A stretch of 63,853 nt of DNA, the filler included, from Globobulimina sp. (lineage: Eukaryota): NCBI GenBank assembly GCA_003354225.1. It is 30 parts of 30 records of this genome, joined end to end, with 100 filler letters (N's around TTAATTAATTAA, not from the genome) between each part and the next. Parts side by side here need not be neighbours in the genome. Positions count along the whole stretch, not along the records: positions 1 to 2,034 come from PIVH01009570.1; positions 2,135 to 4,167 come from PIVH01009571.1; positions 4,268 to 6,300 come from PIVH01009572.1; positions 6,401 to 8,433 come from PIVH01009573.1; positions 8,534 to 10,566 come from PIVH01009574.1; positions 10,667 to 12,699 come from PIVH01009575.1; positions 12,800 to 14,832 come from PIVH01009576.1; positions 14,933 to 16,965 come from PIVH01009577.1; 22 more parts are not named here. One strand, given 5' to 3'. The notes under the pieces are model-generated. The model was not told the DNA's origin. It searched no databases and saw only the letters and a list, made by a program, of their open reading frames with translations. The position numbers and the translations under genes are program-made. Positions 223 to 49,285 of this stretch are shown here, piece by piece. The number at the start of each line of letters is the position of its first letter. The first letter of the stretch is position 1.

Positions 223-1377
223 CTAAACACAATCTTCAGATTTGCAATTATTTTTGATAAAATCCAATACAATGTCTGTAAAATTGAAGCACACATTTCC
301 TTTGGACACGTTATGTCTCTTCTTTTTATCATAATAATTTAGTTTATTTGTAAAATAATTGATATCCAATGCAGTAATATCAACAACGATTCCTTTCTCA
401 TTTCTAAAACCCATTAAAATATTATTAACACCGCCAAGATATGACTGGATCCATATTTTTATGCATTTATACCATGGTATTATTGGTATGTTAGTCTTAT
501 TGCATTGCAATTTATTGACTTGTTTGTATGGATGATATCGCACACGATTTGTTTTACATTCTATCTCAGTCTCATTATGTTTAGAATATGTATTATAATT
601 ATTTTTATATTTGGGTACAATATATTTTTGAGTTTTAATTTCAACATATTCCATTTTATTGTTAATGCAGTCAATCTCCGCGGCCATTAATAATCTATGC
701 TTATTTAATTCACATTCAATCAAAATAACTAATTCTTCATTCTTCTCTTTGTTCTCTTTGCTCTCTGAGTTGTGCGTACATATATGCTCAAAGCGTCTGC
801 CCCACCATTGAGGTCTCAGATTTTTATCATTTTCATTATTGCATTTGTTGTCTTTCAATAAACAGACATTGTCAACAATCTCTAAATGAATAATTGCACT
901 TTTTTTAATAATATCGATGGCAAATGCATCATATTCCGGTTTCGAATGAAAATACGGCGCTGCCATAATTTTATTTATATTATTTCTAAATGTTACAAAT
1001 TGAATTTTTGATTTGGTCATATCATACGCTTCAAAATGTTGCTTCAAAACAGATGTAAATGCAGTTGTCTTTGGAATGTCATGATCTGTCTATTTTATGT
1101 TTTTATGTTTGCTGTGCAAGGATAAGTACTGTACCTTTTTAAATCCTGTATTTAAATCTTGGTCAATTTATGATGTAATATTAGGTATTAATTTTGGTAA
1201 TTCATTTTGTGTCGGAATTGTAACAAATTCTGAGTGAACACCAATATACGAACCGATATTTAAATTTATTTTATATTGTGCGGGTTTGTTAAAACGAGAG
1301 TCATATTCATACTGTCGACCATCCAATACATTCATTGATCGGATTGGGATCCAATTTGTTTGTTGATTTTGTGCCAT
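223..1377 (-). CDS. DXO: DXO/Rai1/Dom3Z-family decapping exoribonuclease; intron 1090-1134; in-frame TAA at 1168-1170; 3' end uncertain
   Basis: Motifs DLNTGF, FVTFRNNINKIM, GRRFE, AEIDC, YVEIKT, KIWIQSYLGGV..ILMGFRNEKG. The 45-nt GT-AG intron joins AAG to ACA in frame with ORF 223..1047. Confidence 0.85.
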
Positions 1378-1408
1378 TATCCAAGCTAAGTATAAGTGCC
1401 CTCAAACA

Positions 1409-2034
1409 ATGACGCAAACAATGGATGGTAAGACAAAATTAATCCAAATGTATAAAAAAAGTAAATCAGACAAGTCATTACTAAAACCTGGCAAAAAAAA
1501 TAAAAAGAAAGCAGAAAATAAACAAATAGAGGATGGAATTGTAAATGCAGAATTGGGCCAATATTTAGCAAAAGCAACACAAAATCATAGAGATGTGCCA
1601 TTTTTACAATTAACGTTACAAATAATAGAGATTATATTTTATGATTATTTTTTCCCATTTCAACGCTATACATTTGTTGGTGTTTGTAAATTATTTATGT
1701 ATTTAATGGACGACACATTACAATCAACGTTAAATAATTCAATCAATGATCATAGGATTCATAATTTTGAATTAAATGCTTATTATTTTTATGATAATTT
1801 TGATGAATTTGTAGTACCAATTTCAAATTCAATTGTCCTGGATTTAAGCAATGAAACCTTGCGAATGTTGAATACCAAACATAAGCAATTTCTGTCCTAT
1901 TTTTTTATGTATCAATCGAAATTAGCATTGCTTTATAAAAAAGAGATATTGTCATCGAAATATAAGAAACATAAGAAAAGGCACGAAAGAAGAAAGAAGC
2001 ACAATATGCAGAATAATAATAATAATAAAGACCA
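1409..2034 (+). CDS. Hypothetical Lys-rich protein, 3' truncated
   Basis: ORF of more than 200 codons from ATG 1409 to the contig end; no motif recognised. Confidence 0.6.
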
Positions 2035-2134
2035 NNNNNNNNNNNNNNNNNNNNNNNNNNNNNNNNNNNNNNNNNNNNTTAATTAATTAANNNNNNNNNN
2101 NNNNNNNNNNNNNNNNNNNNNNNNNNNNNNNNNN
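2035..2134. other. Artificial contig spacer N44-TTAATTAATTAA-N44 (first of 29; others start at 4168, 6301, 8434, 10567, 12700, 14833, 16966, 19099, 21231, 23363, 25495, 27627, 29759, 31891, 34022, 36153, 38284, 40415, 42546, 44677, 46808, 48939, 51070, 53201, 55332, 57463, 59594, 61724)
   Basis: Identical 100-nt linker with stops in all six frames, separating segments of steadily decreasing length (2034 to 2030 bp). Confidence 0.99.
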
Positions 2135-3928
2135 ATGCAAGGATGTACTGTTAGTACAAACATCGAAAAATATAGAATAGCATATTTTATCTGCCACCAA
2201 ATCCGGACTCTCAACAAAATATTTCATAAATAATTGTATTGCTTCCGCATTCATATTACTTTTCTGAAATGCATTCATCATCGCAGCAATACACACAATA
2301 TCTTTAGTTTTAGCTGGAATCGATGAGAATATGTCTATGCAATGATTGATTTCTAAACAATTGCCATAAAAATCAATCAAGGTGTTCTTTATAATTAATT
2401 CACTTTCATTCATTTTGTACATGTTTATCTGATTAATAATTTGTTTTCCTTTTGCAAACAAACCGATATTATTACAAGCTTTGATTGCATACATTATTGA
2501 GATGTTGTCATGTGTTTTTATTTTTGAATATCTTCCATCAATGCAGTTATCAAATAGTTGCACTGCAGATTTATTAAAACTGTTATGAATATATATTGAG
2601 AGCAGGCAATTAATACATATAATATCCACTGTATTATCTGCAATTGATGCAAATATTTGTGATACATTATCCATATTATCTCTGTACAAATACATCAAAC
2701 TTGTTTTAATTTGTAACGAGTACACATAATTATTATGCAAATAGTTAGTATTTGCTATTAAAAATGAATGAATTTCTTTGCCCTTTCCCATATACTCAAT
2801 GAGATCGCGGCAACATGACTTAAGAGCTAACGTATAAGTTATTCCATCCATAAACTTTGCAATTGCGTTATGGCAGTATTTATCATATAATTCTAGTAAA
2901 TCTTTATAGCATTTATTGTTGATAAAAACAGTGAACATTGTGTTGATTATAATGGTATTCATTTTATGTTCATCGACAGAATGAAATATATTTAATGCAT
3001 TGTGAATATCTTTACAGTGACCATACATTTCTATCAATCCATGCTTTAATTGAATATTATTATCCACATTGTGCAAAATTACAGCATGGATCTCCTTTCC
3101 TTTTAAATAATTTTTACTTTTTGTGCAAGCACTTATTGCCAATCTATGACAAATATCATCTTTCAATGCATTATCTGTTGCATCATATAATTGCAGTGCT
3201 GATGCATAATATTTATATTTTATATATACGCCAATCATACAATTGATACTAATCATATCTTTTTCAATGTTATTGAATATTCTCAAAGCATTTGATAAAT
3301 CATAACAATTAATTAATGCGTTTTTTATTATAACATTGTTTTTAGTTTCTTTGTTGAAAAATCCACAGTCAATTAAATGTTCTATAAATTGCAATGATGC
3401 AACATTCTTTTCACATTTTTGTATTAATTTTGTGACAAATGAACCATCGATGCTTATCGTTTTGATGTCATATTGTTTGATATATTGAATTAGTTTAATA
3501 CAATCTTTTATTTTCATATCATTTGATTTTATAAAGCAAGTTAATAATAACGAGTATAATACTGAATCATCATCGCAATGTTGTAAAGATTTGATATCAT
3601 TCCAAATCATATTCAGTGCATTTGAATCGTTTATAATATGATGTTTCAAACAAACTTTTAATAATATTTGAATCATTGAATAGCTTTTGGAAAATCCAGG
3701 TTGCTCATAGATATTAAATGCATTTTGAACCATTTGTTTGGAATTCTTATTTTTTTTATGATGTAAAATGTTCTTAATTGATTTTGTTGCTCTGTCCTGG
3801 TCCAAATGCTTGATGTTTGATGTGCTGAATAATATTGCTCTTCCTAGGTGCGAGAATATATATATTTGCCGTTGATAGAAGAATGATGCTGAAGACAGCA
3901 TTCTGGAAATATTAACACAAACAAACAT
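2135..3928 (-). CDS. PLS-type pentatricopeptide repeat (PPR) protein with possible mitochondrial presequence, 3' truncated
   Basis: Repeating triplets such as ..LAISACTKSKNYLKGKEIH / ..LIEMYGHCKDIHNALNIF / ..INTMFTVFINNK; N-terminus is Ser/Arg-rich and acid-poor. Confidence 0.9.
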
Positions 3929-4269
3929 TACTTTAGTATAGTACGCAAAAACTGAATGAGGCCCCTGTATATCATTAACAACATCGAAAATGGTGACACG
4001 TCACACGTGTTGCTTAAAAACGCCACTGAATCATTTATCAATCTGTAATTTAATGTAATTTAAATTTTTAAACAGTAAACGTAAGCAAAATACAAAAAGA
4101 AATAATGTAATGAGTAATATAAAAAACAACACATTATACTTAAAACCAATAATATAATAATCCAAAANNNNNNNNNNNNNNNNNNNNNNNNNNNNNNNNN
4201 NNNNNNNNNNNTTAATTAATTAANNNNNNNNNNNNNNNNNNNNNNNNNNNNNNNNNNNNNNNNNNNNTT

Positions 4270-6231
4270 TACAAATATTCCAATGAGATTCAGGCAATAT
4301 TTCGTCAAAAATCAGAGTCTTGGAAAAGATGGAAATCGACAGGAAATCCGACTGATTATTCAAAATTTAAGCAGCTCCGTAGACGATTAAAAAGGGACTT
4401 ACTTTTGAATAAAAGACAAGTTGTGACAGAGGCCTTTGATTCCTGTGGCTCAATCCGCGATTTCTGGTCAACATATAAAAAGTTTTCTGGAAGGTCTGCT
4501 GAGATGCCAACATTAACACTTCCTGATGGATCTTTGGCAGCTGAGCCTGCTACAAAAGCTGAAGCTCTTGCCGATCGCTTTGATTCAGTATGGTCAGAAG
4601 AGCAATTTCTGTTCCCTTCATATGTCCCTGAGCCACCAGATGAATCATATTGCAACTACAAATTTATTGAACGTCAACTTGCAACCCTGTCAATAACTAA
4701 GTCAACTGGGCCAGATGATCTACCTGCGATATTTCTGAAAAGTTGTGCTTCTGTGTTGGCACCTTCTCTTTCTATTTTATTTAATCGATCATTATCTGAA
4801 GGTATCGTGCCATCTGCTTGGAAATTCGCCTATGTTTCTCCTGTTCCAAAATGTAATCAACCATCACAGCCTACAGATTATCGGCCTATTGCCTTACTTT
4901 CTGTCATTTCCAAGATTTGTGAACGTCATATCAATTCATTACTATGGAAATATTTGGATCCTTTATTATGTGTCACTCAATTTGGATTCCGAAAAGCCCG
5001 ATCTACAGTGGATTGTCTCAACTTATTTGTACACAAGGTATCCACTAATATGGACAAGCATAAAAAAGTGGCTGCTGTTTTCTTTGATTTGAAGGCGGCA
5101 TTCGACCGGGTGCCACATGGTCCATTATTGGCAAAACTTCAAGATCGTTATGGTGTGCCTCATTCATTGCTCAAATGGTTATGTTCATATTTGTCTAAAC
5201 GTTCATATGCTGTTAGAGTAAGTGGTACATTATCTACAGTTAGATCTATACTCTCAGGTGTTCCACAGGGTTCATGTCTAGGGCCCACATTATTTATTTC
5301 ATATATTGATGGTTTACAGGGTCTTAATTTATCTGAAAATGCATCTTGTTTGTGTTATGCTGATGACTTAGCTCTTATCAAACCTATTCGTACAGCTCAA
5401 GATGAACTTGATCTGCAGGAAGACATAAATAAAATAGCTAATTTTATAACCTCTCATCACCTTCTATTAAATTCAACTAAAACAAAATATATAATTTTTG
5501 GTCGTCATCCCTCCCCTCCATCCATAAATTCTGAACTCTGGTTAGATCAAGTTCTCCTTGAATCTGTTGATGTTTATAAATATTTAGGAGTGCATTTAGA
5601 TCGTAGATTATCATTTACCCACCATGCTGATCTTTCTGCTAAAAAGGCTATTAAGGCCATTGGTGCATATAGTAGAAACTTTGGCAGGGTGGCTCCAAAT
5701 TATGTATTTGAGAATATCTACCATGCTTGTATTAAGCCTGCCCTTATGTACAGTATAGAAACCTGGTGGCCTCAAGCTCAATATGCACAAGCATCTGTTG
5801 AAAAAGTGCAAAGACTCGCTTTGAGAAAATATAACAACAATTACATACTATCTTACTCTGAATTGATGGAACGTGCTAATACAAATGGGAAAAGAAAGTG
5901 GGAACCTCTGTGGAAGAAAGTTGCTGGTCAACGTTTGATTCTGTTACACAAATATTGGTTCAATATACGATATTTTCCCAGAGAAATTCTATCATTGCCA
6001 AATCCAGATGTACGTAGAAGTGAACGTTTTGTTAAACATAATTTACAACTAGAATTGCCTAGGTTTTTAACTTATAATACTGGATCAACATTTCTTTATT
6101 ACACTGTTGTATTATGGAACAAACTTGATAATCATATAGTTCATAGTAATCCTTCAATGTTTAAAAAGTTTACTGAGTCGGCTAATTTTATGCCATTTAT
6201 TGAGAGTAGTTATGTCGCACCATTGTTATAA
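4270..6231 (+). mobile_element. Non-LTR retrotransposon (CR1/L2/Jockey-group LINE) ORF2 reverse transcriptase, 5' truncated
   Basis: KSTGPDDLP, YRPIALL, QFGFR, FFDLKAAFDRV, GVPQGSCLGP, YADD, YKYLGV; frame open from 4270. Confidence 0.95.
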
Positions 6232-6251
6232 TATTCTTTTTTATCGACTTA

Positions 6252-6300
6252 ACCTGATTCAGGTGTCAAATAAACAGATTGATTGATTGATTGATTGATT
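6252..6300 (+). repeat. LINE 3' end: ACCTGA-T-TCAGGT hairpin, AATAAA and (GATT)6 tail
   Basis: Directly after the RT stop; short tandem-repeat tails are typical of CR1/L2 elements. Confidence 0.8.
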
Positions 6301-6400
6301 NNNNNNNNNNNNNNNNNNNNNNNNNNNNNNNNNNNNNNNNNNNNTTAATTAATTAANNNNNNNNNNNNNNNNNNNNNNNNNNNNNNNNNNNNNNNNNNNN

Positions 6401-8295
6401 TCCATTTCGTCGTTAAAAAAAGCTAAACCACGCTCATTGTTAGCAGTGATTTTTCTTAATTTAACATCGACATTAACTTTTTCTCCATCCACACACTTTT
6501 TAAATATCTGATCCGCAGAAACATACCCGATTCCAATCAAATCGTCCGCAGTGACGGTGTCTTTGTCCATCAGCGTCAATTTCAATTGAAAATCGCGTTG
6601 ATATTTGTCGTGCGCATACACAAAAGCAGTCGAATTCCATTCCGGCGTCGCAGTATTGCTAATAGTCTGCGTCTGGAATGACTGTGCTCCCCATTCCACT
6701 CTGACATAGGGATCGGGTCTCCATTGGCCAATCACTGCTCCTTTCAATATTTGCAATTGCATCACGTGCGTATAATAGCGGACATTTAATTCCTTGGCAT
6801 TCTCTCTGTACTTCATCTTAATCTGTAGCTGGCAGAGCTGCTTGTTGCCATTCCTCACAAGTTTCCCATTTGCATCCTTCAATGCTACCCACTGTACCGC
6901 TGTGACAGAGTCTTTATTCGGGCAAACTCGCATCGTATAACCGCCGATAAAATCGTCTTTTGCTAATTGAACTTGATAATATAAATCAAATCGGATTCTA
7001 TCAATGCTCGAAAATAGATTCTTGCCAATCTCATCGAAGGTGGTGTTCCAAATTGGATTCAATTCATTGAAATAAGTATTGGTTTTGAATGTGGATTTAT
7101 TCATTTTTACCATAATATATGGATCCGGTTTATTGACAGTGGGATTTGGTAAATTGCGCGCTTGAATCACATAGACAGTCACTTGGTTTTCGCAATGCTC
7201 AAAGAGCAAATTAACGCCTTTTAAGCACTCTTCAGCAGTCCTGTTTTCTTTGTTTTTTACGCTATGATCGCAAATCTCGCGTAAATAGCGAATTATAGCC
7301 ATATTGACATGCTTCTCTTCTTTCTGACATTGTATATGTAATACAGTGTTTCCATCGTCATTCTGCACATTCACGTCCTCCATAAACAATGCTAAAAGTG
7401 TTATAATTTCTAATTCAACATTTTCTTCGTTGCAATTCGATGCATAAAACCATAGTTCTGTTTTGTTTATGTTTTCCATTTTAGCCAACAGAGCTCGCAA
7501 AATGTTTGTTTTCTTCATTAATACCATATCCTTTAAAAAATCTATGTTATCCATCTCCATCGCAGTACGTGGGATTTTCCAATCAATCTTCATTTCGACA
7601 GTATCATTGTTTGCCGCCTCGTGTATCCACTCAATGGACTCCGGTTGGTCGCCTTTGACTGCCCATTGCCAAACATCTCCGATCATTTCCTGCAACTGCA
7701 ACGCATCAAAATTCTCTTTAACTTCGTCTTCTATATTCAACGTAAGCTGCACCACTGATTTTTCTATGCGTTTCAGAAAATTGGTTTTGTCCGATTCATT
7801 TTGAGCAGCCGCAGTTTGCTGGCCAGCCCTTGCGAACTGACAGTAGTTTGATATCAACCGCTCCGCCAGTTTGATATTGCCCAAATAAAAGGCCATTTGG
7901 ATGGCAGTGGCGCCGGTACTCGATTTTAAAAACGGATATTTGCAGCCAACGTCAATAATTAATTGGTGTAAATGTTTTTTGTTACTTCTTTGCAATGAAT
8001 TTAATTTCTTGGTTGTTGCCACATTGTCAGTTCCAACGAGGTAATCCAAAATGCATTTATTTTTCTTAGTTCTTGCTTCTGGATCGACTTTGCCATGGAA
8101 TGAAAATATATGACGTGCGAGTTTGCCGTATTTCTGTTGGCAGCATAACATTAATAAATTTTCGTGCGTTTCTGTATCAAATACGCCATAATGTCCCATA
8201 TAAACTTGCATTTCTATGATGCCATCGTAGTCATTGGATTTGATCATGTCGCTTAACGTGGAATAATGTGGTAATATGAAGGTATGTTTGCGCAC
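6401..8295 (-). CDS. Ankyrin-like repeat plus tandem C2-domain protein, 3' truncated, start uncertain
   Basis: Ankyrin-like DVNVQNDDGNTVLH; two C2 domains (ARNL..KPDPYIMV..NPIWN and PDPYVRV..TPEWN..DKDTVTADDLIG). Confidence 0.85.
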
Positions 8296-8559
8296 GTTTT
8301 TGATTTATGCCATAATGTACAAACAAGCCTCAACCTTTATATTATTCCAGTGACATACCTTAAAGTTCGAGCATTCGATTTAATGCCTTTGAATGCAGCA
8401 ACATATCAAAAATAAGATAATAACGGAATGATTNNNNNNNNNNNNNNNNNNNNNNNNNNNNNNNNNNNNNNNNNNNNTTAATTAATTAANNNNNNNNNNN
8501 NNNNNNNNNNNNNNNNNNNNNNNNNNNNNNNNNTCTTTTTTTTTTTTTTTTATTTTTTT

Positions 8560-12590: not shown

Positions 12591-12933
12591 TATAATGTTT
12601 TATTGTTTTTTTTTAATGGTTCAAAAAGCAATTAATGTTTGCTTTTTGTTCAATAAATTATTGTTAAAACATTATAAATCAGAAAAGTTCTCATTGCTCN
12701 NNNNNNNNNNNNNNNNNNNNNNNNNNNNNNNNNNNNNNNNNNNTTAATTAATTAANNNNNNNNNNNNNNNNNNNNNNNNNNNNNNNNNNNNNNNNNNNNG
12801 TTTATAAACTTAATGGGAAGTTCATTGAAAACTTATGTAGAAACAAAGAAACAAAAATAGCTTTTTCTTGTTGCACGGAAAAAAAACATAAAAAAAATTA
12901 TTACGCATTTTGTGTGCGTGCAAGGATAAACAG

Positions 12934-14148
12934 TCATAATTTAATAAATTTTTTATTTTGTGCATTATCAAATATCGACTCGTGATATCCAACATATTTT
13001 ACATTATTTGACGCATTCCAAAAAGAATGCCTTTTATCCGAATCATTTTCATTCACAGCATTTTGGTGAATTTTTGCATAAAATCCACATAAATTGTCTC
13101 GTTCCAATAATTTCTCCAAATGGTGCTGTGATGTTTGCTGTTTAATGGCATCCCAACTTGATAAAAATTTCTCTTTTTCCAACTCGATTTTATTCTCTTT
13201 ATTCTCCATATCCATTTCACCAACTTCACCATCAAAATGTTGCCATACTTTTATTTCATTTAAAGTCGCAATCATAATATTTTCGTAATTATTTGCAAAC
13301 ACTTTCTCTTCTTTGCCTGCGATTTTCGCAAATAATTCCCCATTAAAACATTTCCTTAACATTCCACATTGCAATAAATATCTATGCAATGCATTTTGTG
13401 TATGAATAATAGCTGCATTTTGATCCACATTTTGGTTATCATTCGATGTAAAATCCTCATAAGATACGTTATGATATTCGCGCTGTGTTTGGCGTATTTT
13501 ATGTTGAAATAATTGCATATTTATACTTGGATCAATATTAACGCGTTTTGGTGGCCGTATATCCGATGTATTATGATATAATAACCTTCGTTTTTTATTT
13601 TTGTTTGTTTCATTGTCGTTAAGTTTGGGCATCGATAAATTGAAGCGATCATTATTTATTTCAGTGGATATTTCCTGTTCCATTTCATGTCTCCGTCGTT
13701 TACGTTGTTGGATACGATTTCTTTCTCTCTCTCTTTCTGTGCGTTGTAAATATTCAATATCACGATCAATATCTTCTAAATCTATTCCATTTATTGTATT
13801 ATCATTGCCTTTGCCATTGCCATTGTTATTGTTATTAGCACCAATTCGTTGTTGTTGATGATGATGACCGTATTTGTAATATTGCTGTTGTTGTGGCGGT
13901 GCGTGTTGTGAGTGATGAATAAGCGAATGGATTCCTTTCTGTCCAGATGGAATAATAAGTTTTTCTTTTACCATTGCATCTAATTTATACCATAATGCAT
14001 TGAATACTGCAGTTTTTAATCCGGGATATTTAGAAAATAATGTATTACAACAAATGTTGTTTAAATGGTCATGAAATGTTACCACATTATTGAAAATTAT
14101 CCCTTTACACACTGGGCATTGATGACGAGTCACGCTTTTCTCTGACAT
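12934..14148 (-). CDS. Hypothetical protein with N-terminal C2H2/C2HC-like zinc finger and Gln/Asn-rich tract
   Basis: HQCPVCKG..FHDHLNNIC; about 400-codon ORF. Confidence 0.7.
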   Translation of the reverse strand: MSEKSVTRHQCPVCKGIIFNNVVTFHDHLNNICCNTLFSKYPGLKTAVFNALWYKLDAMVKEKLIIPSGQKGIHSLIHHSQHAPPQQQQYYKYGHHHQQQRIGANNNNNGNGKGNDNTINGIDLEDIDRDIEYLQRTERERERNRIQQRKRRRHEMEQEISTEINNDRFNLSMPKLNDNETNKNKKRRLLYHNTSDIRPPKRVNIDPSINMQLFQHKIRQTQREYHNVSYEDFTSNDNQNVDQNAAIIHTQNALHRYLLQCGMLRKCFNGELFAKIAGKEEKVFANNYENIMIATLNEIKVWQHFDGEVGEMDMENKENKIELEKEKFLSSWDAIKQQTSQHHLEKLLERDNLCGFYAKIHQNAVNENDSDKRHSFWNASNNVKYVGYHESIFDNAQNKKFIKL

Positions 14149-14198
14149 GATAAGTCTAGACAACTGTAAGTAAAATTATATAATTATATAAAGATATA

Positions 14199-20906: not shown

Positions 20907-21230
20907 GTGACAATCGAAGAAAGGGTGATATCGAATAAAAAAGTGTGACAATCGAAGAAAGCGTGATACAAAAGCGTGACAGTCTAAGAAAGCGTGATAC
21001 AACAGCGGATATAAAAGCGTGTCAGTCGAAGAAAGCGTGATACAACAGCGTGACAATCGAAGAAAGCGAGATATACTCGAATAAAAAAGCGTGACAATCG
21101 AAGAAAGCGTGATACTCGAATAAAAAGCGTGACAATCGAAGAAAGCGTGATACTCGAATAAAAAGCGTGACAATCGATGAAAGCGTGATACTCGAATAAA
21201 AAAGCGTGACAATCGAAGAAAGCGTGATAC
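20907..21230. repeat. Minisatellite, unit about 38 bp (GTGACAATCGAAGAAAGC + GTGATACTCGAATAAAAAAGC)
   Basis: About 8-9 imperfect tandem units running to the contig end. Confidence 0.95.
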
Positions 21231-25594: not shown

Positions 25595-26040
25595 ACCCGT
25601 TGAACCAAAAGCAGCGCCGGAGTCCAAGCAAGAACCGCAAGTATCGGATGTCAAAGAAGAGTACTTTGAATCTGTGGAAGATGACGGTGTAAAAGAAAAC
25701 GGCACAGTTCGAGTGACAGTGAATGCACAGAGATTAGAGACAATGTGGGCTGAGGCAGAGTTGGGCGTAAATGAGGATAAAGGAATGTATTTAGGCGCAG
25801 TGGGCAAAATTACTGAGATAGAGGAAGATGACGACACTGTACAGCTACGATGGGGCAATTACGATACGTGTTGGATCCCAATTAAAGCTTGCGTTTTTTA
25901 GTAAATTCTCTATTTATTCCACTTTTGCACTGCGAAAATGCGATGCTTTATCATTTTCAAGAAATTTCCTATTACTTAATATACAGAATTCAAATGGAGC
26001 AGAACCAACATTGCCAAATGGAATGAACCCTCATTTGTAA
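25595..26040 (+). CDS. 3' part of a protein with a Mind-bomb-repeat (SH3_15-like) domain; intron about 25893-25986
   Basis: GTVRV..RLETMW..GMYLGAVGKITEIEEDDDTVQLRW..W.P..C. Confidence 0.55.
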
Positions 26041-26423
26041 ATAAAGAAATGCAATTTTATAAATACGGATCATAATCAATTACTATTTGTGAATGTATTT
26101 CTTATTTATAGTGCTAATGAATGAGTTTTTTTTTCTCGCCTAATAATATTAATTAATTTTTACAAACATTGCATTATAAACTAAATTGATTAGGCGTTGT
26201 GTGCAAGGATACTAAAAATGTGGTTCCGTCTAGAAACAGAGTCACCTCAAATTACAGAGAAATTCAGGAAGCACAGACAATTCAGATTTGTGTACGTTAC
26301 GTTTGTTTATGATTTGCAACAGCATACAAATACACAAAATAATCTGACGTTGAAAACATGTGCTCTTTATCGGATTTGTCGTGAAATCGTTATAATTAAA
26401 TATATTTTTGGTGTCAAAAGGAT

Positions 26424-26880
26424 TTATTTATGTTTCATATCGATAATATCATAGATCAATGGATGATTATCCTCATTATCTCTTTCAATTTGCAATTCCG
26501 AATCTACATTGACTTTTTTGTTTTCATTGTGATTCGTCTCCGATAAAAACACTGAAAGAGAATGTTGCAACCCGTGAAATGTCATATATTCGTTAATTAG
26601 TTCATGTATCAATAATTCCTTCTTATTCCATTGCATTTTATTTGTTGTACTTTTGATATCTTCCATATTGTCATTGGCTCTCTTTTCTACATTGTCAACT
26701 CCCAATTCCTTTCCTATTTGCAACGATGCGAATATCTCCGCTCTTATTTTGGCTTTCAATTCCGATAATACTCCTTTCTCCTCCAATACTTGTTTGACAG
26801 CTATTAAACCATCCAATACATCGCAATGCACACAAAACAAACACAACAAATCAACATATACCATTTGTAAGACTGTCCAT
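26424..26880 (-). CDS. CEP20: FOPNL/FOR20 (CEP20) LisH-domain centriolar protein; intron 26801-26861
   Basis: Spliced MDSLTNAVKQVLEEKGVLSELKAKIRAEIF..LLIHELINEYMTFHGLQHSLSVFLSET. Confidence 0.8.
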
Positions 26881-26979
26881 GTTTACTTTGTAGAATTCAC
26901 TGGAACAAAAAAGATGAAAATGTATGAACTTAGTTCGAAAACATTAATTTGCACGCTTCAAAATGACAACATTTAGTAT

Positions 26980-29758: not shown

Positions 29759-30091
29759 NNNNNNNNNNNNNNNNNNNNNNNNNNNNNNNNNNNNNNNNNN
29801 NNTTAATTAATTAANNNNNNNNNNNNNNNNNNNNNNNNNNNNNNNNNNNNNNNNNNNNTGGTGACTGACAAAGGCAAAAATTATATAGGTTTGCCTTCGT
29901 TTCTCAGAAACAATAATAGTCTGACGTTGAAAACCGGATGCTCTTTAATTCAATCTAATTAATGTTTAATTTAATTTGTCCACATTTTCATCCTTCAATC
30001 CATAATTCCATAAAGCTCTTACAAGGTCATCTGAATATATAACACTAATTATATTTATAGTTTAATGAAAAACCTTTTATGAATAAAAATC

Positions 30092-31890
30092 ATGTGGCAA
30101 TCTGAACATAGTAATGGTGACGAATTGCGCCATGCATGTTTACACAACGACGTGGCGACAGTACGCAAACTACGCAAATTAAATAATGTAAATATAGAAA
30201 TCGAAGATTCGAATTGTACAACCCCTCTAATGCTTGCATGTTATTATGGAAATTACGATGTTGTTTACGAATTGATCTCCAATCAAAACGCATTGATTGA
30301 TCATGGAAACAATATGGGTGCAAATCCATTGCATTACGCCTGCGAACAGCAACACATTGAGATTGTAAAATTATTACTCGACAACAACGCAAACATAAAT
30401 ATCCAAACCAAAAAAGGCTATACGCCGTTACATTACGCGGCCACTACAAATAATTTTGAATTATGTAAACTTTTATTATTATGCGGCGCAAACAAAACAG
30501 CCAAAGATATTTATGGTCAGAGCGCCGTCAACATCGTCAATAAGAAAAAACGCACCGATATCATTTGTCTATTCCAATTAGAAACCAATGATGAAATAAA
30601 AAAATTACAAAGCCATCGTCAACACACAAATCCATTGAAATCTATTAAAAGCAACACTCATTCCATCGAATTAGAAAAAGAGCGCATTATGCGAGGCGAG
30701 ATAAGCACATTAAAGGATATATTAAATGAGATTTCCTACGAAAACGATCGCAGAGTCGACAAATTGATGCAACGCATCGGCTGTATTGAAGATTATGTGC
30801 AAGGACTGTCCGTTTCTGTGCACTCCATTTTAGAAACGCCAAAATTTCGCAATATGCACATTACTGTTCCTCAGAAACAACATATTGTAATCACCGAAAT
30901 GGAGATTGCGATGGATATCGATACGCCCATTACAGAATTGAATACACCAATGTCTGATCGCGACAATGTGCCTATTGACTTGCATACAGATATCGATATC
31001 GATTATGAATATGACTTAGAACAGTTAGAAGATGATGGCTGCAGAGACCGACCCGGTTTGCACGCGATACCGTCATTGCGACCGGAGGCAAATTCATTAG
31101 ATTTGGGTGGCTTCAGTGATGACGAAGGCACTACGATGACGGGTACGGCCTATTCGACTACGCCTAAATTGGCCAATATTGTGCAGGATGAAGTGGATGG
31201 CATTGACGCAGACGCTGTGCTGGTACATATGTCGCCTATTACGGAGTACATAGACGATGGTGATGTGAGTAATCCGACGCCTACGCCTGCGATGTTTACC
31301 ACTTTGCTGAAAAATCAATATAATTCATCGCCGGTAGCCCCTACACCATATACTTCACCGCATAAACCACGTACTCTTATTCAAAGCGATGAGCATCGGC
31401 AAAGAGCTAAGACCGAATCTAAATAGTTTGTAACATACATTTTGTTTATTAATTGCTGCTATAAACTGATAAAACATAATCAAAAACAAGTGCGAATTAT
31501 GATGGCATTGCGCCGCATATCAACGATGATGACATTCATAATTATCCAGACTTAGATGATGCAGAAGCTACGTATCGAGAAATTGTGATTTCTGAAGAAG
31601 AATATGTCAAATTAATGTGTGCTCGGCCGGAAACAGTCCGGCATCATAGCGATCCCATAATGCATGTAAATAGAGATCCGGGCCATGGCCAAATGAGCGA
31701 TATCGCCATACCAAATACCATTGGTATGCTAGGTATAATATCTCCGACCACCGTGGATGCGGTGCGACGGAGCACTTTGCATCACGAAGAAATGACGAAT
31801 GCGGCTCGCAAATTCGAGTCAGGAACGTTTTATAGCGGCAGGAAAATCAGCGTCAAGCTCAAGAAGGCGAAGGCACGACGCAATCGGACA
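30092..31890 (+). CDS. Ankyrin-repeat protein with coiled coil and acidic tail; probably continues in a further exon to the contig end
   Basis: TPLMLAC, NPLHYAC, TPLHYAA ankyrin cores. Confidence 0.85.
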
Positions 31891-37375: not shown

Positions 37376-38283
37376 ATGCACTCACCGCAACCTCCTCGGT
37401 ACGAATCATATCATCATTCCACTGTCTATTCCTGCATACATTGCATGGAAATTGCACAAGTCAAGTCATTGAAAAACAGCAATCCACCAAGTCGCAGAGA
37501 GACCGCCATGAATGAATTGAATGACTTAATAATGTCGTATTACATAAATTGTTTGCCCTCCAACCAAGACGCGAGTGCAATAAAACAACTCTATGAGTTC
37601 ACAATTGAGTGCATGGAAGAGATATTATCGTACGAAGAGTACAAAATGCATGCTCCAAATACAGAGTTGGCGATAATATTCGGCAGTATTGGCTTTGACC
37701 TACAATCCAAATATTCAGACATCGACATTGCTGTAAATATACCTCAATTCACAAACACATTGATTCATTCTAATCAAATTCAAAAAGAACAATCGAAATA
37801 TGCGAGGAAGTTGTTATCGGAGCTCGCACAGATAATGACGCGAAAATATGTAATAAAACATGGTTCAAACTTAAATGTTTAGTGCAAGGATGACATATTA
37901 ATAAAATAAAATAAATTCTCAGCAAATAACAAACACTAAAACAGGTAGAAAAAGTGTTGCATGCCAAGGTGCCGATAATTAAGATCAACGACACCGACTC
38001 CAACAGTGAGAGTGACATTTCTTTGGCAAATTTTTACACCAAACCAAGCCTTAAATTGATGAGAAAGTTTACGTGTTTTGAGGATCATAGAATTAAACCA
38101 TTTGTAATGTTTATAAAGTTAAAAACTACCAAAAAGTATATTTTGTTAATAATTGCAAGTATTTTTTTTGCAAAATAGAATGTGGAGTAAACAGCGTGGG
38201 ATAAATAATGCATTTGGTGGCTATTTGAATTCTTTTGGTTTTACTTTATTAGCAATTAAATATTTACAATACGTGACACCGTC
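37376..38283 (+). CDS. Terminal uridylyltransferase / non-canonical poly(A) polymerase (Cid1/GLD-2 type); introns about 37877-37944 and 38118-38178; 3' truncated
   Basis: FGS..SDIDIAV, AKVPIIK..DIS, IK.WSKQRGINNA..GYLNSF..LL.I.YLQ. Confidence 0.9.
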
Positions 38284-41753: not shown

Positions 41754-41822
41754 TCAAGTTCAAAAGTAAGCGCTTTTTGATTATTTGTATTTTGTTGAGT
41801 GAAGTTGAGTAAATAATTAAGC

Positions 41823-42230
41823 ATGTCAACAAGACCAGGAACAAGTTTATTCGATTTAAAATCTAAAATCCGACGTAATCCGCAAGCCTACAAAAATGAT
41901 GTATTACGGCAAATAAATCATTGGGAGTCAATATTATCATTATTACGAATTAGCAACAAAGCAAACACAACTCGTTCCCGCACAAAAGACTTACAAGCTT
42001 TAATTGATTTTTTATCCGCAATTGTCGACAAATATCCATCCGAACAGCGATGCATTACACTGTTCCCAGCAGATTTATTCAATTTACTCGATGAACATCA
42101 CGAAACTTTAAATGTAATCATCAAAAAATGCATCATTAAAAACTTAGTCGTCCTACAAAACAAATCATTGCTCGACACCACCAAATTATTATCCCTATTT
42201 TTCAGATTGTTATCATTAAACAGCAAAATA
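41823..42230 (+). CDS. SDA1: SDA1 (60S biogenesis) N-terminus, cut off by a chimeric junction
   Basis: LKSKIRRNPQAY..Q..H..LIDFL..YP..FP..L..LL..H..LLSLFFRLL. Confidence 0.7.
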
Positions 42231-42544
42231 CCTGTTTGTCCATTAAATACATAGCTCTTTATATTCATTAGTTTGTAACGAATTTCGGTATTCTGATAAA
42301 ATGAATGATCTCCTGCAAAACGATTGCTCCTAAATCCTCTGAGATTCGTTCTTCCACCTATAAAATTAGCATGGTAAAATTCATAATCCCCAATATTTGT
42401 AGCCCCTCCAAAACGGAATGCAAATATTACTCTGGGATCTTTCCTGAAACTGAGATAGAAACTTAAATCCGAGTGAATCTTTATGAAATTTCTCCCTTTT
42501 TCTCTTACACTGTAGTACCCACCAGCCTCTGTCTCCCAAAAAAT
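42212..42544 (-). CDS. Bacterial (Bacteroidota-like) BamA/TamA Omp85 beta-barrel fragment (not in the ORF track)
   Basis: 111 open codons ..GDYEFYHANFIGGRTNLRGFRSNRFAGDHSFYQNTEIRYKL.. Confidence 0.75.
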
Positions 42545-42645
42545 TNNNNNNNNNNNNNNNNNNNNNNNNNNNNNNNNNNNNNNNNNNNNTTAATTAATTA
42601 ANNNNNNNNNNNNNNNNNNNNNNNNNNNNNNNNNNNNNNNNNNNN

Positions 42646-42992
42646 AAATTGGTTTAATTGAAACAAAAGAATGGAAAAGAAATGAAATTAAAATACATAT
42701 TAATATCAATTGTAATAAAAAGGTTAGGCTAAATGATTGTGTATCAAATATTGGAAAAATTATTCATTGGTTGGATTATTCCGAAATTAATGATTTTATG
42801 TTTATATTGACATTAAAAGGTCTGAATGCTACAATCGATAAAAATATTTTATTAAAAGAATTACAATCAAAAGCAAACTATTTATCACTGAATGTAAAAG
42901 TTAGCAGATTAAAAAATGAGTTTGTAGTCACAAATATTGATTGCAAAATTAATGGATTTAAGGAATCATTTATAATGCAGACATATTATTGA
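42646..42992 (+). CDS. 3' fragment of a hypothetical protein
   Basis: Open frame from near the contig start to TGA 42990-92. Confidence 0.4.
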
Positions 42993-43186
42993 CATCTGGT
43001 AGGTATCATACACTTTAATTGTTTCTCGGACTGTTCAATGTGTTTTTTGTTGCGAAAATTCTTGAATCATAAGCACAAAAATCAACAAATACGCAAAAAT
43101 AATCTGACGTGCAAAATAATAACAAGTTACAATAACCAAACAATTCAATTGACAAAAACACAAAAATAATACATGCGATCTCAAAA

Positions 43187-44280
43187 TCAGTCTAAAACAT
43201 AATCAACAACTTTTTGTCTCGTATTGCTTTGTTGTTGAACATCATCCATTGTAAATGTAGGAAATGCTTTATTTCCCTCTTCATATTGCAACCAATTATC
43301 GGCTGCCCACTGATATTCCCCATCCACACAATGTACCATTAATGCGTGTCTCGCGTCCTCTGAATAATTGGCATCACTCCAATGGACCACCTCGCCGTGC
43401 AATATCACCACATCTCCACATTTGGCCTCCACCGCAATGCCTCCCTCTTTCGATAAGCCTCCATCACCAATTAACGGCACTAATTCAGTCGCATTGTTAT
43501 CATGCTCTCTTCGTTTAAACCTATTTTTTAATCCAATAGTATGTGACTTGGGTACGACCCACGGACAGCCATTCGCTGCAGTCGTGTCATCGATGCATAG
43601 CCAAAAACCATGACACGACGCAGTAGGTTCCGTGAATAAAAAGCTCGAATCCTGATGGATGCCTACCTCGCCACCAATGCCTGCTTGCTTGAAGATGTAC
43701 ATACATTGGATTGGAATCGGCCGCAACATACCAACATCGTATGTTAATTGCGGTAAATATCCATATACATACCTTGTTTTTGTAGGTAATGTATGTAATG
43801 TCAAACATATATTTAAGGTGGGAAACGTAACGAATGTATGATGGGATCAAGTGTATGCAGTGCGTGACCTATCTTATTTATGGCAAGTTTAGCTGGACGC
43901 GTTAGAGTACCATGCGTATCAAAGGCACGTTCTTCCCAAAAATATGCAATTTTATCACCGCTTTCTAAAAAATATTGGTCTGTGTATTGGGTTTCAGTGC
44001 GATGTGTGGTGAAAATGGATTTAGTTGTTTGTGGGTCAAAATTATCCAATAAATAATCAATTCGATTCTTGCAATTCTGGGCAACTTTGCGAGGGATAAA
44101 ATCTTTCAGCCATAAATAACCATTTTCTGATAAAAATGCTTTTTGTTCTTCATTTAATGCGTATGCTGATTTAGTCACGTTTTGCGTTGAAAAAAATGAT
44201 TGTTGACACATATAATTAATTTTACTCAATTTATTGAACGGCGAAAGCCGATTTACTATATTGCTATGATTAAGTTTCAT
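43187..44280 (-). CDS. PHYHD1: Phytanoyl-CoA dioxygenase domain protein (PHYHD1-like), one intron
   Basis: YFLESGDKI.YFWEE.AF, INKIGHALH.LDP, MYIFKQ.GIGGEV..HQD.SFL.TEP, HG.VVH.S.AN.S..RHA. Confidence 0.9.
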
Positions 44281-44842
44281 TTTGTTTAATTTTCTTTTAT
44301 TTTACAATAGTTTGATGTTTTGAATATTTTGTTAATTATGAAAGTGCGCTAATTATCACGAACCCACTGTATAGATCGAATATAAACAACAAACAATAAC
44401 ACAAAAATCAAACGATCTACAAAAAAAAATGCATGGGTATGGTACATGATATGAAGCGAAGAAAAGATTTTCAAAGAGTTTCATCAAACATTGCAACACT
44501 TTTCTCGTATTTTCGTCCAGTCTTTTTGGTAAGTTTTGCGTTAGCTTTGTCTGGTGAGTAGATCACGCAACAAACACGAAACCAACAACACCGCCCTACC
44601 CATACTAACAAGCCCTTTACCAAAATGATGTGTGATCAAAAATCTCATCACCAGACATTGCAGACAATATATTCTCNNNNNNNNNNNNNNNNNNNNNNNN
44701 NNNNNNNNNNNNNNNNNNNNTTAATTAATTAANNNNNNNNNNNNNNNNNNNNNNNNNNNNNNNNNNNNNNNNNNNNTGCTGAAGATGCAAGATACAGTTC
44801 TTAGTTCTTAGTGTAGAAAAACCAAAAACCAAAAACCCACCT

Positions 44843-45844
44843 ATGCCCATCGACCATCCAGAGTTTCATCCAGGATATGCTGCCTTGATATTGGTGTTTT
44901 TAGCAGCATGCGCCTCTTTATTTAAACCAAAAGATGATTATGCGCCATTAAAATTGAATCAATTTACTCATTATTCTGCAAAACATGAAAAATGGAAGAA
45001 TCGTGGACAATTTTGTTTAGCGCGAGTACAATATTGGACAATACGATTTATATTTTATTATGCGATCCCTCATGTTGCCATCGGCTTATATTTATTGACA
45101 ATTGCGTTATCGATTGGGATTTCTGTATCTCGGGTAAACAGAGAGTTGCATTCAAATTTATCCATATTACAAAATGATGCAATGTTTTGTGACGATGTGG
45201 ATCCGCAATTAACCATTGATCTAAATCGTATTGCACAAGACACACAAAATTGGAGTGATCAATTGACCTGGTTACTAATTGCCTATTTCTTTCACGTTTA
45301 GTGCATATTTTATATAATATCCACATATTATATTATATTAAATATATAGAAAATGTTTGGAGCGACATTATTAGTGAATGGTGGAGGAAGTGTAATGATT
45401 GGAGCAGTTGTGTTTGATCCATGGTTATTAATAAGCACTTTTTGGGGAACAAATATAGAAAATGGTATATTATTAACACTTGACAGTAAATCAATGAATG
45501 AATGTTTAACAAAGTGGGATAATAATCATTCTATGTTTAATGCATTGGAATCAATTATTTACGGTGTAAATAGTTGCAACATATGTTTATGGGCAATGGT
45601 TGCAATGTCACTATCTGTTGGATTGGCAATTGATATCATTTGCACATTTCTGCGTGAATTTGAATATTGTTTGAAAAAAGATTTAACCGAAGATGATGCA
45701 GTTTGGAACAAAATGAATGTTATCGAAAATGTTGTTGACGCTCTTGATGAGGTCGTCGAAGAAGCATTGGAAAATTACGGAATAAAAGACGGCGAAAAAG
45801 GAAGCGCCACAAACGACATTCAGCTCGAAATTAATACCAAATGA
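44843..45844 (+). CDS. Multi-pass membrane protein, two exons (intron about 45296-45349)
   Basis: Several hydrophobic helices in consecutive ORFs separated by a GT-AG gap. Confidence 0.65.
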
Positions 45845-45910
45845 ATGATTCTTTATCGATCCTTGCACAAGTAACAAGTAACAAGTTACATAAATTGTTT
45901 TTGTTTGTAT

Positions 45911-46531
45911 TTATTTATCATCATTTCCTTCATTTTTTGTTGCATTATCAACATCTTCCTGCTCAATACCAAACAATTGATTCAATTCACCGTTTTTGAA
46001 CATATCAACAACAATGTCATGACCACCAATTAATTCTCCTTTATAATATAATTGAGGAAATGTGGGCCAATCACTGTGAGAATTAATAGTGTTAGAAGAG
46101 GCAGATATAAATCAAATCAAATACTAGTACCTGTATTCTTTAATAGCTTGCCGTAATGCAGGGTGTGATAGAACATCTCTTGTATTATATTCAACTTCTA
46201 AATATTCAAGCATTGCGATTAAGTTTTTTGAAAATCCACATTGTGGCATTTGTGGTGTTCCTTTTATGAATACAAATACTTGATTATTTGTCACATCATC
46301 TTCAATTTGTTGTTTAACTAACTTAATATCTCCTGTTTTATATGATGTTTGAAAATCTGGATGAATGCCACCTGATCCTGTACCATCTGAGCAATACCGT
46401 TTGGTATGATTTATTTTAGAAAATCTATGCAATGATATCGAACTAAAAGTTCGTGTATGATAATTTACATTGTGTTTAATGAAAAATAATAATGCGGGAG
46501 CATAGCGTTTTGCTACTTGGAAATAAGACAT
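45911..46531 (-). CDS. GLRX5: Mitochondrial monothiol glutaredoxin; intron 46074-46130
   Basis: KGTPQMPQCGFS, KEYS/DWPTFPQLYIKGELIGG; presequence-like N-terminus. Confidence 0.95.
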
Positions 46532-46588
46532 GTTGAGATGATTACTTTATTTTTGTAGCTGCCTCAACTAAGTCAACTTGGGTTTAAA

Positions 46589-46807
46589 ATGTCAATTTCC
46601 AAAAGCAAATTAGCTGCTGAAGAAAAGGAATTTTGGTGCAATTGGAAACAATATATCACAAAATCTAATGACGAAATTGAAAAAGACTTACTATCATTAA
46701 AAAAACAGCATAAATCATTTATGTTTATTTATGAATATTTGCAAAAAGAGTTTGCAATTCCAATTAAATTATCAAATACAATTATTTTATATTTGCCAAT
46801 AAAAAAG
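46589..46807 (+). CDS. Hypothetical protein, 5' fragment
   Basis: Open from ATG to the contig end. Confidence 0.5.
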
Positions 46808-46907
46808 NNNNNNNNNNNNNNNNNNNNNNNNNNNNNNNNNNNNNNNNNNNNTTAATTAATTAANNNNNNNNNNNNNNNNNNNNNNNNNNNNNNNNNNNNN
46901 NNNNNNN

Positions 46908-48550
46908 TTGATTCTGTCGATAGCGTTTCTGTTGCCATCCCGCTTGCGATTGGAGGGGTGGTGGCGGTGCATACCGCTATGTATTCCAGCACCAAAGTCC
47001 TTATTTATTCTTTTCTTCAATTTCTTGTTGTTTTTATTGTTTTTGTCTGTCTGTTGCATGGAATTAAAGTCGTTATAACTTATTCGTTTTGCATTATTTT
47101 TATATTGCTTTTTATTTATTTTATTGTCCGGTGTGATGCTCGTGTTCGTAGGCATTTGTTTAAAGCCATTAAAACTGACATTTCTGTTTTGTTTTAACGC
47201 CTTCATATTGGGCTGAGACTGGTACATATTTCGATGTGCCCAGAACTCGCTGAGTGGGTTCGGATTATTTGGGTTGAATTGGAATTGGATGTGGTTGTAA
47301 TCCCGTTCATTGTTACTATTTTCCGGCGTGACCGGCGAGATACTTTGCTCAATGCTGGGCATTTTGAATGGATATGGCTTCATTGCAGCGGCAGGCGTTT
47401 TGCTTTGGCTTTGCTGTTTTTTTTTATGTGGCAGTTTCTGTTTTATTTCCTGGCACACTTCGTGCGATTGGGAGTGTGCAATGGTTGGCGCCATGCATTT
47501 CTCGGGCAACGCATCGATGGCAATGCTGTCTATGTCGATGGTAAATGGCGAAAGATCGCCGGGTGAGGAAGGCGTGTGATTTGCCGGTGTATTATTAGCA
47601 GATTTAATTTTGCTGCTCGTTGGACTTAAGATTGGCAATGGTTTGCTTGGCGGTAATGAGCCGACTCGCTGATGACTTATTTTTTGTATTTGTGGGATGT
47701 GGAACGGCGATTTAACGAATGCATTTTCATCGGGTGGCGGTGTGGACGTAGTGAACATAGAATGTGTGACAATATGTCGTTTGCCCGTGATTTTTTTCTT
47801 CATATTATTCAAGTGTTTGTCGTATGTTTTTGGTGAGATATTATGCGCAAATACTTGCTGAATGTGGTAGGAAACACTGTCATTTATGTCTATTTTGCTC
47901 GGTTTATTGTTGGCTTTATCAATGGGAATGGATGGCTGATGAATTTCCTCCACAATCTGTGCAATTTCATCCCTATCCAATGGCATAGCGTCGACGTCGG
48001 AATGTTCAGCGATATCTTCGTCGCTGCTGTCATGCCTTACCACTGTGTTGCGATGGTATGGCTCATCGTCATCGTTGATGACGGATTCCTTGATGTCTTT
48101 ATATTTATTGTGCATATCTGTGGAGTCGTGGATGATTACAGAGCCTTTATGATAGCCTTTGGGAGGCACTGACGATTCGTAATCGGTTTCGGTGGCATCC
48201 GGATTCTCATTGATTGTGTTGTCGTCACTCTCTACGGCTTCTATAGTGTCTATGTTGTCATATTCATCTGCTGCGGATAGGGTTAATTTCTTTGCTACTT
48301 TGTTGTGTTTTGGTATTGAATGGGACGACTCCTCGTCGCTGCTGTCTGTGCCTTCGTCGCTACTCAGCAATGCGTTCTTATCGTGGTTTATTGCACTTGT
48401 CTTTGGTTTTAGGCGTTTGTTAGTTGTGTAGGTATAACTATTGACAGAATAAGTGCGAGCTGGCTTAGACTGCGGCTGCGGCTTAGTTTGCGGTAAAGGT
48501 CTCGAGGGTGCCCGTCTTCGACTGACGAAACTTGATGACGCGGTCGGTCC
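46908..48550 (-). CDS. Long disordered Ser/Pro/Asn-rich hypothetical protein; 5' end probably replaced by foreign GC-rich DNA
   Basis: More than 540 open codons; composition shifts near 48550-48600. Confidence 0.65.
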
Positions 48551-48850
48551 AGTCGATCTCGCCAACCTGGAGGGGAGGGTCCGGCGAATCCAGTCAACAA
48601 GGCGGGGCGGTTTACCCAGCCAGCAAGGCGGGGGCGGCTTACCCAAACAACCAAAAAGCATCGGCTTAATTGAGTTTTATAGAGTGGCGCTCAGAAAATT
48701 TCGGAGGTTAGTTTCATCAATTTGCTGATTTTCAGCGAAACTCTGCTTTTGGTACACTTGTGACACGCTGCTAAATAGCAAAGACGAATCTTTCTCTCGC
48801 TTTGTTTGATCGTCACAGCGTGTTTATTCAATAAAACAGGAGACGTACCC

Positions 48851-48938
48851 ATGCCGACAGAACCCGATATTTTTAATGTCGATAATCAAGCCGAATACAT
48901 GAAACAACTCGGTACCGACTTTACCGAGGGCCTCAAGA
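48851..48938 (+). CDS. Bacterial-type gene start with Shine-Dalgarno (possibly a P-type ATPase N-terminus)
   Basis: AGGAG at 48838-42, 8 nt before ATG; MPTEPDIF..LGTDFTEGL. Confidence 0.4.
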
Positions 48939-49285
48939 NNNNNNNNNNNNNNNNNNNNNNNNNNNNNNNNNNNNNNNNNNNNTTAATTAATTAANNNNNN
49001 NNNNNNNNNNNNNNNNNNNNNNNNNNNNNNNNNNNNNNAATAAAAGTCAACAGTTTTTCAACAGAATATACCATGCCGTTTTGACAACTTTTCATTGTAA
49101 GAATTCGTCCATAATTGTTTGAAAAAAAGAGTCATAGACGAATGAGCACGAAACGAAACGCAATAAACGCTTATCCTTGCACTCAACGCGTTTTTCAAAA
49201 TATGTAATTTTTTGTGAATTGTGATGCAGTTTGAAACTGAAAATTGTGTCGGTTGCAATGCACAAATATATAGCTTCAAAATACG

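Follow-up and report, generated by a model that had tools for sequence, protein, structure and literature searches.

The stretch of Globobulimina sp. DNA analysed here (hereafter the window) spans 63,853 bases and consists of 30 separate contigs of 2030-2034 bases (~2.03 kb) each, with a linker of 44 N, a 12-base spacer and 44 N between one and the next, and all motif statistics given below rest on the 61 kb sample that it provides. GC content ranges from 28 to 38% in 4-kb windows across the window, and profile searches of the contigs identify ordinary eukaryotic proteins, including the enzymes DXO/RAI1 nuclease, a terminal nucleotidyltransferase, a MAP-kinase-kinase-like kinase, an old-yellow-enzyme-type reductase and a glutaredoxin, further proteins of the PPR, ankyrin, kelch and C2 types, and the retroelement genes RVT_1 (a reverse transcriptase) and rve integrase. 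The closest protein matches are transcriptome or metagenome entries at 48-73% identity, and protein searches show that relatives at 60-73% protein identity exist; a metagenome search with the reverse-transcriptase protein of contig 2 returned no relative. Dispersed between and within these genes is the word GTGCAAGGAT, which in this 61-kb sample is truly over-represented and occurs in non-coding DNA only, and which we tentatively propose may be a double-stranded DNA site for a sequence-specific factor.

First, GTGCAAGGAT is strongly over-represented and confined to non-coding sequence. The original prediction had reported six exact copies in six contigs, and a count on both strands confirms all of them, one per contig, together with their coordinates and strands (Table 1; copies are named below by number or by start). 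Dinucleotide shuffles give an expected count of 0.11, with none of 100 shuffles reaching six, and an order-3 Markov model gives 0.10. Counted by contigs under the same model, GTGCAAGGAT has a log10 P of -8.8 at k = 10, a value that survives Bonferroni correction over 49,375 10-mers and upholds the strong over-representation claimed for it, and it is the top over-represented dispersed word at k = 8, 9, 10 and 11. When coding-like open reading frames (ORFs) were masked, all six copies fell into the 13,634 non-ORF bases (expected ~0.02) and none into the 47,319 ORF bases, in agreement with the earlier claim that every copy is non-coding. A comparison word, the palindrome AATGCATT, occurs at 17 sites in 12 contigs (for example at 2268, 13388 and 45539) and is about threefold over-represented; it was rejected as a second non-coding motif, given that 15 of the 17 sites lie inside ORFs and reflect coding-sequence bias.

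The copies of GTGCAAGGAT are, moreover, all-or-none. Allowing one mismatch yields eight sites in total (3.25 expected), the only two additions both lying in ORFs, and allowing two mismatches yields 50 sites (52.5 expected), while the non-coding DNA of the window contains no variant with an insertion of one or two bases or with a one-base deletion. In the part of the literature matches that was listed for a string search with GTGCAAGGAT and four 12-mers, written in DNA and RNA letters, no protist motif appears; the matches listed come from animal, plant or virus studies, in which the strings are presumably primers. A 17-base extended pattern retrieved 70 metagenome loci (442 kb), each picked for one extended copy, and these hold no second copy of GTGCAAGGAT and show no resemblance to the window by blastn; they are chance hits and serve as a rough control only.

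Beyond the core, three copies (1114, 12918 and 49173) extend to GTGCAAGGATAA, as had been noted before, and copy 45859 extends likewise in four other sequencing runs, in which four adjoining bases are absent. An A follows at +1 and at +2 in four of six copies each, or in five of six if the form of copy 5 found in the four runs is used, and copies 26201 and 49173 have 17 of 18 bases in common. Upstream, at positions -10 to -1, G+T reaches 0.72 against a background of 0.50 (P ~0.003, post hoc). Mean pairwise identity over 40-nucleotide (nt) flanks is 0.355 upstream and 0.297 downstream, compared with 0.274 (standard deviation 0.073) for random pairs, and the upstream excess is a matter of G/T richness, not of alignment. 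Folding of 70 nt around each copy revealed no shared or unusually stable structure (z-scores -0.6 to +0.6), and the GTGCAAGGAT region is unpaired in the predicted folds.

Table 1. Exact copies and near-copies of GTGCAAGGAT in the window, and the length difference adjoining copy 5.
Feature	Position	Strand	Sequence and context
copy 1	1114..1123	+	exact, then AAG; antisense within the 45-nt GT..AG interval 1090-1134 (-)
copy 2	12918..12927	+	exact, then AAA; 6 nt past the TGA of the 413-codon ORF 12937-14175 (-)
copy 3	26201..26210	+	exact, then AC; in a 528-nt spacer between convergent ORFs
copy 4	37882..37891	+	exact, then GA; sense, bases 6-15 of the 68-nt candidate intron 37877-37944
copy 5	45859..45868	-	exact; in a 72-nt convergent spacer, 14 nt past the TGA of the + gene
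copy 6	49173..49182	-	exact, then AAG; ~100 nt upstream of the ATG at 49286 (+ gene)
near-copy	2135..2144	+	one mismatch (first base A); at the first base of contig 1, within an open frame
near-copy	30797..30806	+	one mismatch (last base C); inside the ankyrin-repeat ORF 30083-31423
4-base indel	45855..45858		adjoins copy 5; present in the window, absent from four runs

Second, the six copies occupy several kinds of non-coding position. The contexts described by the original prediction, namely just past a stop codon (12918), between convergent genes (26201), 14 nt after a stop (45859) and upstream of a gene (49173), all hold, and its assignment of two further copies to introns is retained in graded form: the 45-nt interval at the DXO gene is a probable intron by frame logic, and introns of 68 or 95 nt are possible in frame at the nucleotidyltransferase gene. 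The DXO interval, immediately 5' of the DXO/RAI1 ORF, contains a stop in frame that splicing would remove. This ORF aligns to solved DXO proteins only from their residue ~87 onwards, so that upstream exons are needed; the intron is made probable by the missing N-terminus together with the GT..AG frame logic. Searches of Pfam and of PDB sequences with the 77-codon upstream ORF gave no DXO match. In the expected N-terminal coding region upstream of the DXO ORF, an in-frame TAA at 1168-1170 (-) splits two open frames and may mark another intron, a lesion in a pseudogene or a mistake in the assembly. At the nucleotidyltransferase gene, the ORFs around copy 4 carry consecutive pieces of one palm domain (profile positions 2-89 and 93-126), and the interval between them offers the two in-frame GT..AG candidate introns.

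The remaining copies lie in spacers. The sense strand of the 413-codon ORF reads ATCCTTGCAC at copy 2. Copy 3 is flanked by the ORFs 25596-25898 (+) and 26427-26882 (-, FOP/LisH), and a 61-codon ORF, for which no support was found, would end 31 nt before it. Copy 5 lies 42 nt past the TAA of the convergent glutaredoxin gene, and copy 6 may be located in a divergent spacer, as a short open frame on the minus strand near it runs off the contig. The near-copy at 2135 may be a seventh copy with a contig-end error; the block GTACTGT stands directly after it (region 2135-2157) and also 2 nt after copy 1. The near-copy at 30797 is treated as a chance match.

Third, comparison with other sequencing runs shows that copy 45859 is real, retained in other strains and transcribed. 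This comparison covers contig 21 and hence one motif copy, which stands in spliced contigs of four runs (X5-X8) from three studies, X6 and X8 representing the same sample. The run contigs behave as RNA-derived because both introns of this region, 45296-45349 (54 nt, GT..AG, +) and 46074-46130 (57 nt, -), are skipped in contigs of the four runs. In each run, one contig or a set of overlapping contigs crosses the whole convergent spacer including copy 45859. X6, X7 and X8 show a divergence of ~2.8% from the window: for X6 and X7 the list of differences is complete and has none within 45793-45928, and for X8 ten of the 11 differences are listed, none of those in GTGCAAGGAT. X5 shows zero substitutions and is identical over a 630-base contig save for the 4-base indel, which is the sole length difference in contig 21 and which separates the window from all four runs. 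Without these four bases the flank of copy 5 reads the longer GTGCAAGGATAAA form of 12-13 bases, and the distance from the stop codon to the copy is 10 nt instead of 14 nt. Since at least one transcript passes through copy 45859, these data argue against a strict roadblock or cleavage site at GTGCAAGGAT. At 45859 the four runs show neither a breakpoint in coverage nor an added telomere or a junction; a poly(A)-like loose end or a pile-up of starts or ends is also absent there, although contigs cannot display such ends.

The same contigs allow two observations on gene structure. The convergent genes are 72 nt apart stop to stop (45842-45913), and because RNA-derived contigs of the four runs bridge this spacer, either the transcript 3' ends overlap or one transcript reads through. 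In addition, the first ten bases of the RNA-verified intron (45296-45305) and of the 68-nt nucleotidyltransferase candidate intron (37877-37886) are the same, GTTTAGTGCA, which may point to an extended 5' splice-site preference.

With regard to what reads the element, our preferred interpretation, held at somewhat less than even confidence, is that GTGCAAGGAT is bound as double-stranded DNA by a sequence-specific factor whose footprint is long. The case for DNA binding consists of two sequence properties, namely orientation independence and a long asymmetric consensus, and from these we infer that a protein may read GTGCAAGGAT, that it would read it as DNA and that binding would have consequences of the kind outlined below. 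The original prediction had the element occurring in either orientation relative to genes, and this is correct: the two intragenic copies oppose each other, the one in the nucleotidyltransferase intron being sense and the one in the DXO interval antisense. Because a single RNA-level reading cannot cover both, double-stranded DNA is favoured. The other copies sit in spacers in which both strands are 3' or 5' flanks, and their orientation is ambiguous. The earlier idea of a DNA signal is thus favoured at the DNA level by these opposite orientations, while the chromatin, replication, amplification or DNA-elimination roles suggested with it remain hypothetical.

Under this proposal, GTGCAAGGAT would be the invariant core of a lineage-specific cis-element in an AT-rich eukaryote, and the full site would extend over approximately 16-18 base pairs (bp), comprising an upstream G/T-rich patch of 10 bases, the core and usually AA. 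Its putative reader would be a protein with, for example, several Myb-like or zinc-finger units, which would act in either orientation from the scarce non-coding DNA available (convergent spacers, short introns and a promoter-side spacer), and the role of the site would be that of a general regulatory or boundary-type site. Compact genomes are known to use such sites, for example those of the Reb1, Abf1 and Rap1 type in yeasts, and animals have insulator-protein sites. Like these, GTGCAAGGAT is a short, near-invariant word that occurs in either orientation at non-coding gene borders and at 3' ends between convergent genes, that is carried by about one gene in seven and that is predicted to have a long asymmetric footprint. 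Unlike them, it has two copies in short introns, it lacks a degenerate halo and it is read through at 45859.

Several observations weigh against a protein-bound DNA site. Sites bound by proteins are usually accompanied by degenerate variants, whereas the six exact copies are surrounded by no non-coding halo of one-mismatch or indel forms, a weak argument at n = 6. Only one of the six copies is on the promoter side, a placement uncommon among transcription-factor sites of compact genomes and one that also led us to reject a core promoter element. Contigs of all four runs cross copy 45859, which makes a tight terminator of the roadblock type unlikely. In five of six copies, or six of seven if the near-copy of contig 1 is included, ATCCTTGCAC is sense to the closest well-supported gene, and copies 12918 and 45859 follow TGA stops at 6 and 14 nt, the rough chance of both being ~0.004, which fits an RNA-level element. 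The sample, finally, is small at 61 kb.

The sense-strand tally and the two placements after TGA stops also speak for the strongest alternative, in which AUCCUUGCAC on the sense strand of the (pre-)messenger RNA would be bound by an RNA-binding protein or a pairing small RNA and would act on 3'-end formation, stability, translation termination or splicing in a subset of genes. We regard this as possible but doubtful. In its favour, copy 45859 lies within the spliced, RNA-derived contigs of four runs, the all-or-none exactness suits base pairing, the region is unpaired in predicted folds, and sub-threshold matches to C/D-box small nucleolar RNA (snoRNA) and U6 occur at 37882. Rbfox- and PUF-type words, which are sense-strand elements of 5-8 bases in introns and 3' untranslated regions (UTRs), offer a parallel: like them, GTGCAAGGAT stands in introns and just past stops, is transcribed in one copy and is linear and unstructured; unlike them, it has 10-12 invariant bases and one clear intron copy in the opposite sense. 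This nucleotidyltransferase intron, in which the element has the opposite sense, contradicts such a reading. Moreover, the bias of five in six is not significant (one-sided binomial 0.11), either strand counts as 'sense' in the 72-nt convergent spacer, and a complementary small-RNA gene is absent from both strands of the window.

More specific RNA-level memberships were likewise rejected. A general poly(A) signal is excluded by the small number of gene ends that carry the word: GTGCAAGGAT occurs within 80 nt after the stop at four of 45 listed ORF ends (not all of which are gene ends), namely those of the two convergent genes, of the first nucleotidyltransferase exon and of the 413-codon ORF; in the RNA-level reading, two or three of the ~45 listed ends would carry it. 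At a U12-type 5' splice site the intron would open with a purine-T dinucleotide that is followed at once by ATCCTT, whereas at the six copies ATCCTT is preceded by TT, TT, GT, TC, CG and TT; only copy 26201 has GT in that place, and no intron is shown there. Scans of the whole window found no Rfam family at gathering score, no transfer RNA (ARAGORN) and no Rfam match with E <= 10 at any copy. A close-up scan at 37882 gave 14.2, 12.4 and 10.9 bits (E = 2-4) against gathering scores of 44, 42 and 44 for the 5' ends of C/D-box snoRNAs and for U6, matches that depend on the GA following GTGCAAGGAT at that site only, and the close-up at 49173 gave no comparable match. There is some likeness to these families (RF01618, RF00151 and RF00026), as GTGCAAGGAT at 37882, with the bases after it, matches the first 12 consensus positions of RF01618 and has a local match to U6, but the scores of 10.9-14.2 bits compare with required values of 42-44, and at the other copies the next two bases are AA, AC or CG. 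We therefore rejected both a C/D-box snoRNA, for which the best score is 14.2 bits versus 44 (RF01618) at 37882 only, with no D box or terminal stem, and a U6 small nuclear RNA gene or pseudogene, for which one site scores 10.9 bits versus 44 (RF00026) at E = 2 and the whole-window scans give nothing.

Two further readings stay at the level of DNA and are, in our judgement, unlikely. One, in line with the original prediction, takes GTGCAAGGAT as a DNA-processing mark, that is, a site of cutting or recombination, a replication start, or a guide for programmed elimination or fragmentation. The other, which we find no less improbable, sees a genome-wide punctuation mark of a little-studied protist lineage, every base of which would be read by a guide RNA or by a protein derived from a nuclease or transposase; such a mark would serve in DNA-level breakage, elimination, recombination or replication and would be tolerated only off coding sequence, including in tiny introns, and its activity would have left the indel at 45855 and the near-copy at a contig end as traces. 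A few known breakage or nuclease sites show exactness without variants, as GTGCAAGGAT does, and the signals of ciliate breakage and elimination and the origin consensus of budding yeast are exact, dispersed, non-coding words of 10-17 bp that work independently of orientation. In form these are the closest to GTGCAAGGAT, which is likewise exact, dispersed, non-coding and orientation-independent. The single indel adjoins GTGCAAGGAT, a proximity (within 4 nt in ~1.7 kb) with a chance of ~0.01, and one near-copy stands exactly at a contig start (2135). However, one indel and one contig end are anecdotes, and intact copies persist within transcribed, spliced genes and are stable between strains. 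Unlike the ciliate and yeast words, GTGCAAGGAT is associated with no breakpoints, telomeres or copy-number steps: nothing of the kind was seen at 45859, and none of the 30 contigs of the window carries telomere-like repeats at its ends. Its density of about one per 10 kb and its intron positions also set it apart from these words.

It is very improbable that GTGCAAGGAT is an insertion relic, by which we mean a recent and unselected footprint or end fragment of a mobile element, or a patch derived by copying an abundant small RNA. A recent origin would account for copies that are identical and lack variants, copy 1 and the near-copy of contig 1 share the further 7-base block mentioned above, RVT_1 and rve integrase genes are present in the window, and one site has the weak U6-like match. 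Against this, the flanks are unrelated on both sides, the boundaries of the shared block are identical in all copies, which differs from truncated retro-copies, the avoidance of ORFs is unexpected unless selection purged such insertions, and the U6 match scores 10.9 where 44 is the gathering threshold. The check for flanks of a miniature inverted-repeat transposable element (MITE) or short interspersed nuclear element (SINE) that had been proposed for this element has now been run, and the flanks do not align; a MITE, SINE or other dispersed repeat family was therefore rejected on the 40-nt comparison given above. Identical short copies in non-coding DNA are a feature that GTGCAAGGAT does share with MITEs and SINEs, whereas its shared block is about 12-18 bp, its flanks are unrelated, and no inverted partner, target-site duplication or second copy is found in any 2-kb contig.

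A tandem or low-complexity repeat was also rejected, the six copies being in six contigs and not head-to-tail. Each of the words that rank above GTGCAAGGAT in raw counts, AAAGCGTGA among them, belongs to a tandem array local to one contig. Such arrays reach contig ends at 20907-21230 (the end of contig 9) and at 53301-53500 and 53766-53840 (contig 25), with units that contain AAAGCGTGA / GTGACAATCGA, and AAACCTATAG / CTCATATATGAG.

Chance, or an assembly, adapter or primer artefact, has a nearly negligible probability: GTGCAAGGAT was picked by eye from one window, so that multiple testing applies, and the start of contig 5 (10667-10690) may resemble the start of a commercial oligonucleotide for amplification of complementary DNA and may be a library-preparation leftover, but the enrichment holds among all words of its length and against all shuffles, the six copies are internal to contigs and within continuous genes, the 70 metagenome loci provide no second copy, and the check for primer or adapter origin finds copy 45859 at an internal position in four runs from three studies whose loose ends carry other adapter letters.

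Some features of the window lie apart from GTGCAAGGAT. The near-palindromic CAGTTTGAA(AC) occurs four times in one gene region of contig 23 (49227, 49684, 50600 and 50928), and most of these sites are close to or at the end of an intron. Between coding-like ORFs, TGA codons stand in frame at 62397-62399 (-, contig 29) and at 51926-51928 and 52460-52462 (+, contig 24), and none of the three is surrounded by an in-frame GT..AG intron; those of contig 24 are within the rve integrase and look like decay. In-frame stops had suggested a reassignment of stop codons, an idea that we rejected, as three stops are explained by ordinary introns and two lie in the decayed retroelement integrase.

Finally, weighing these comparisons, we believe that GTGCAAGGAT is probably a lineage-specific cis-element, with a modest chance of something stranger, and that its closest counterparts in behaviour may be general regulatory or boundary sites or, on the RNA side, words common to introns and 3' UTRs. 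Should it turn out to be merely the site of one transcription factor or one RNA-binding protein, it would make a useful, ordinary annotation. If the enrichment extends genome-wide, at about one site per 10 kb, GTGCAAGGAT would be among the most sharply defined cis-elements in a non-model protist, and an 18-bp oligonucleotide would be an easy handle for finding the factor that reads it. In that case it would also be a clue to how a compact genome, with introns of 45-95 nt and convergent spacers of 72 nt, marks and separates its transcription units.

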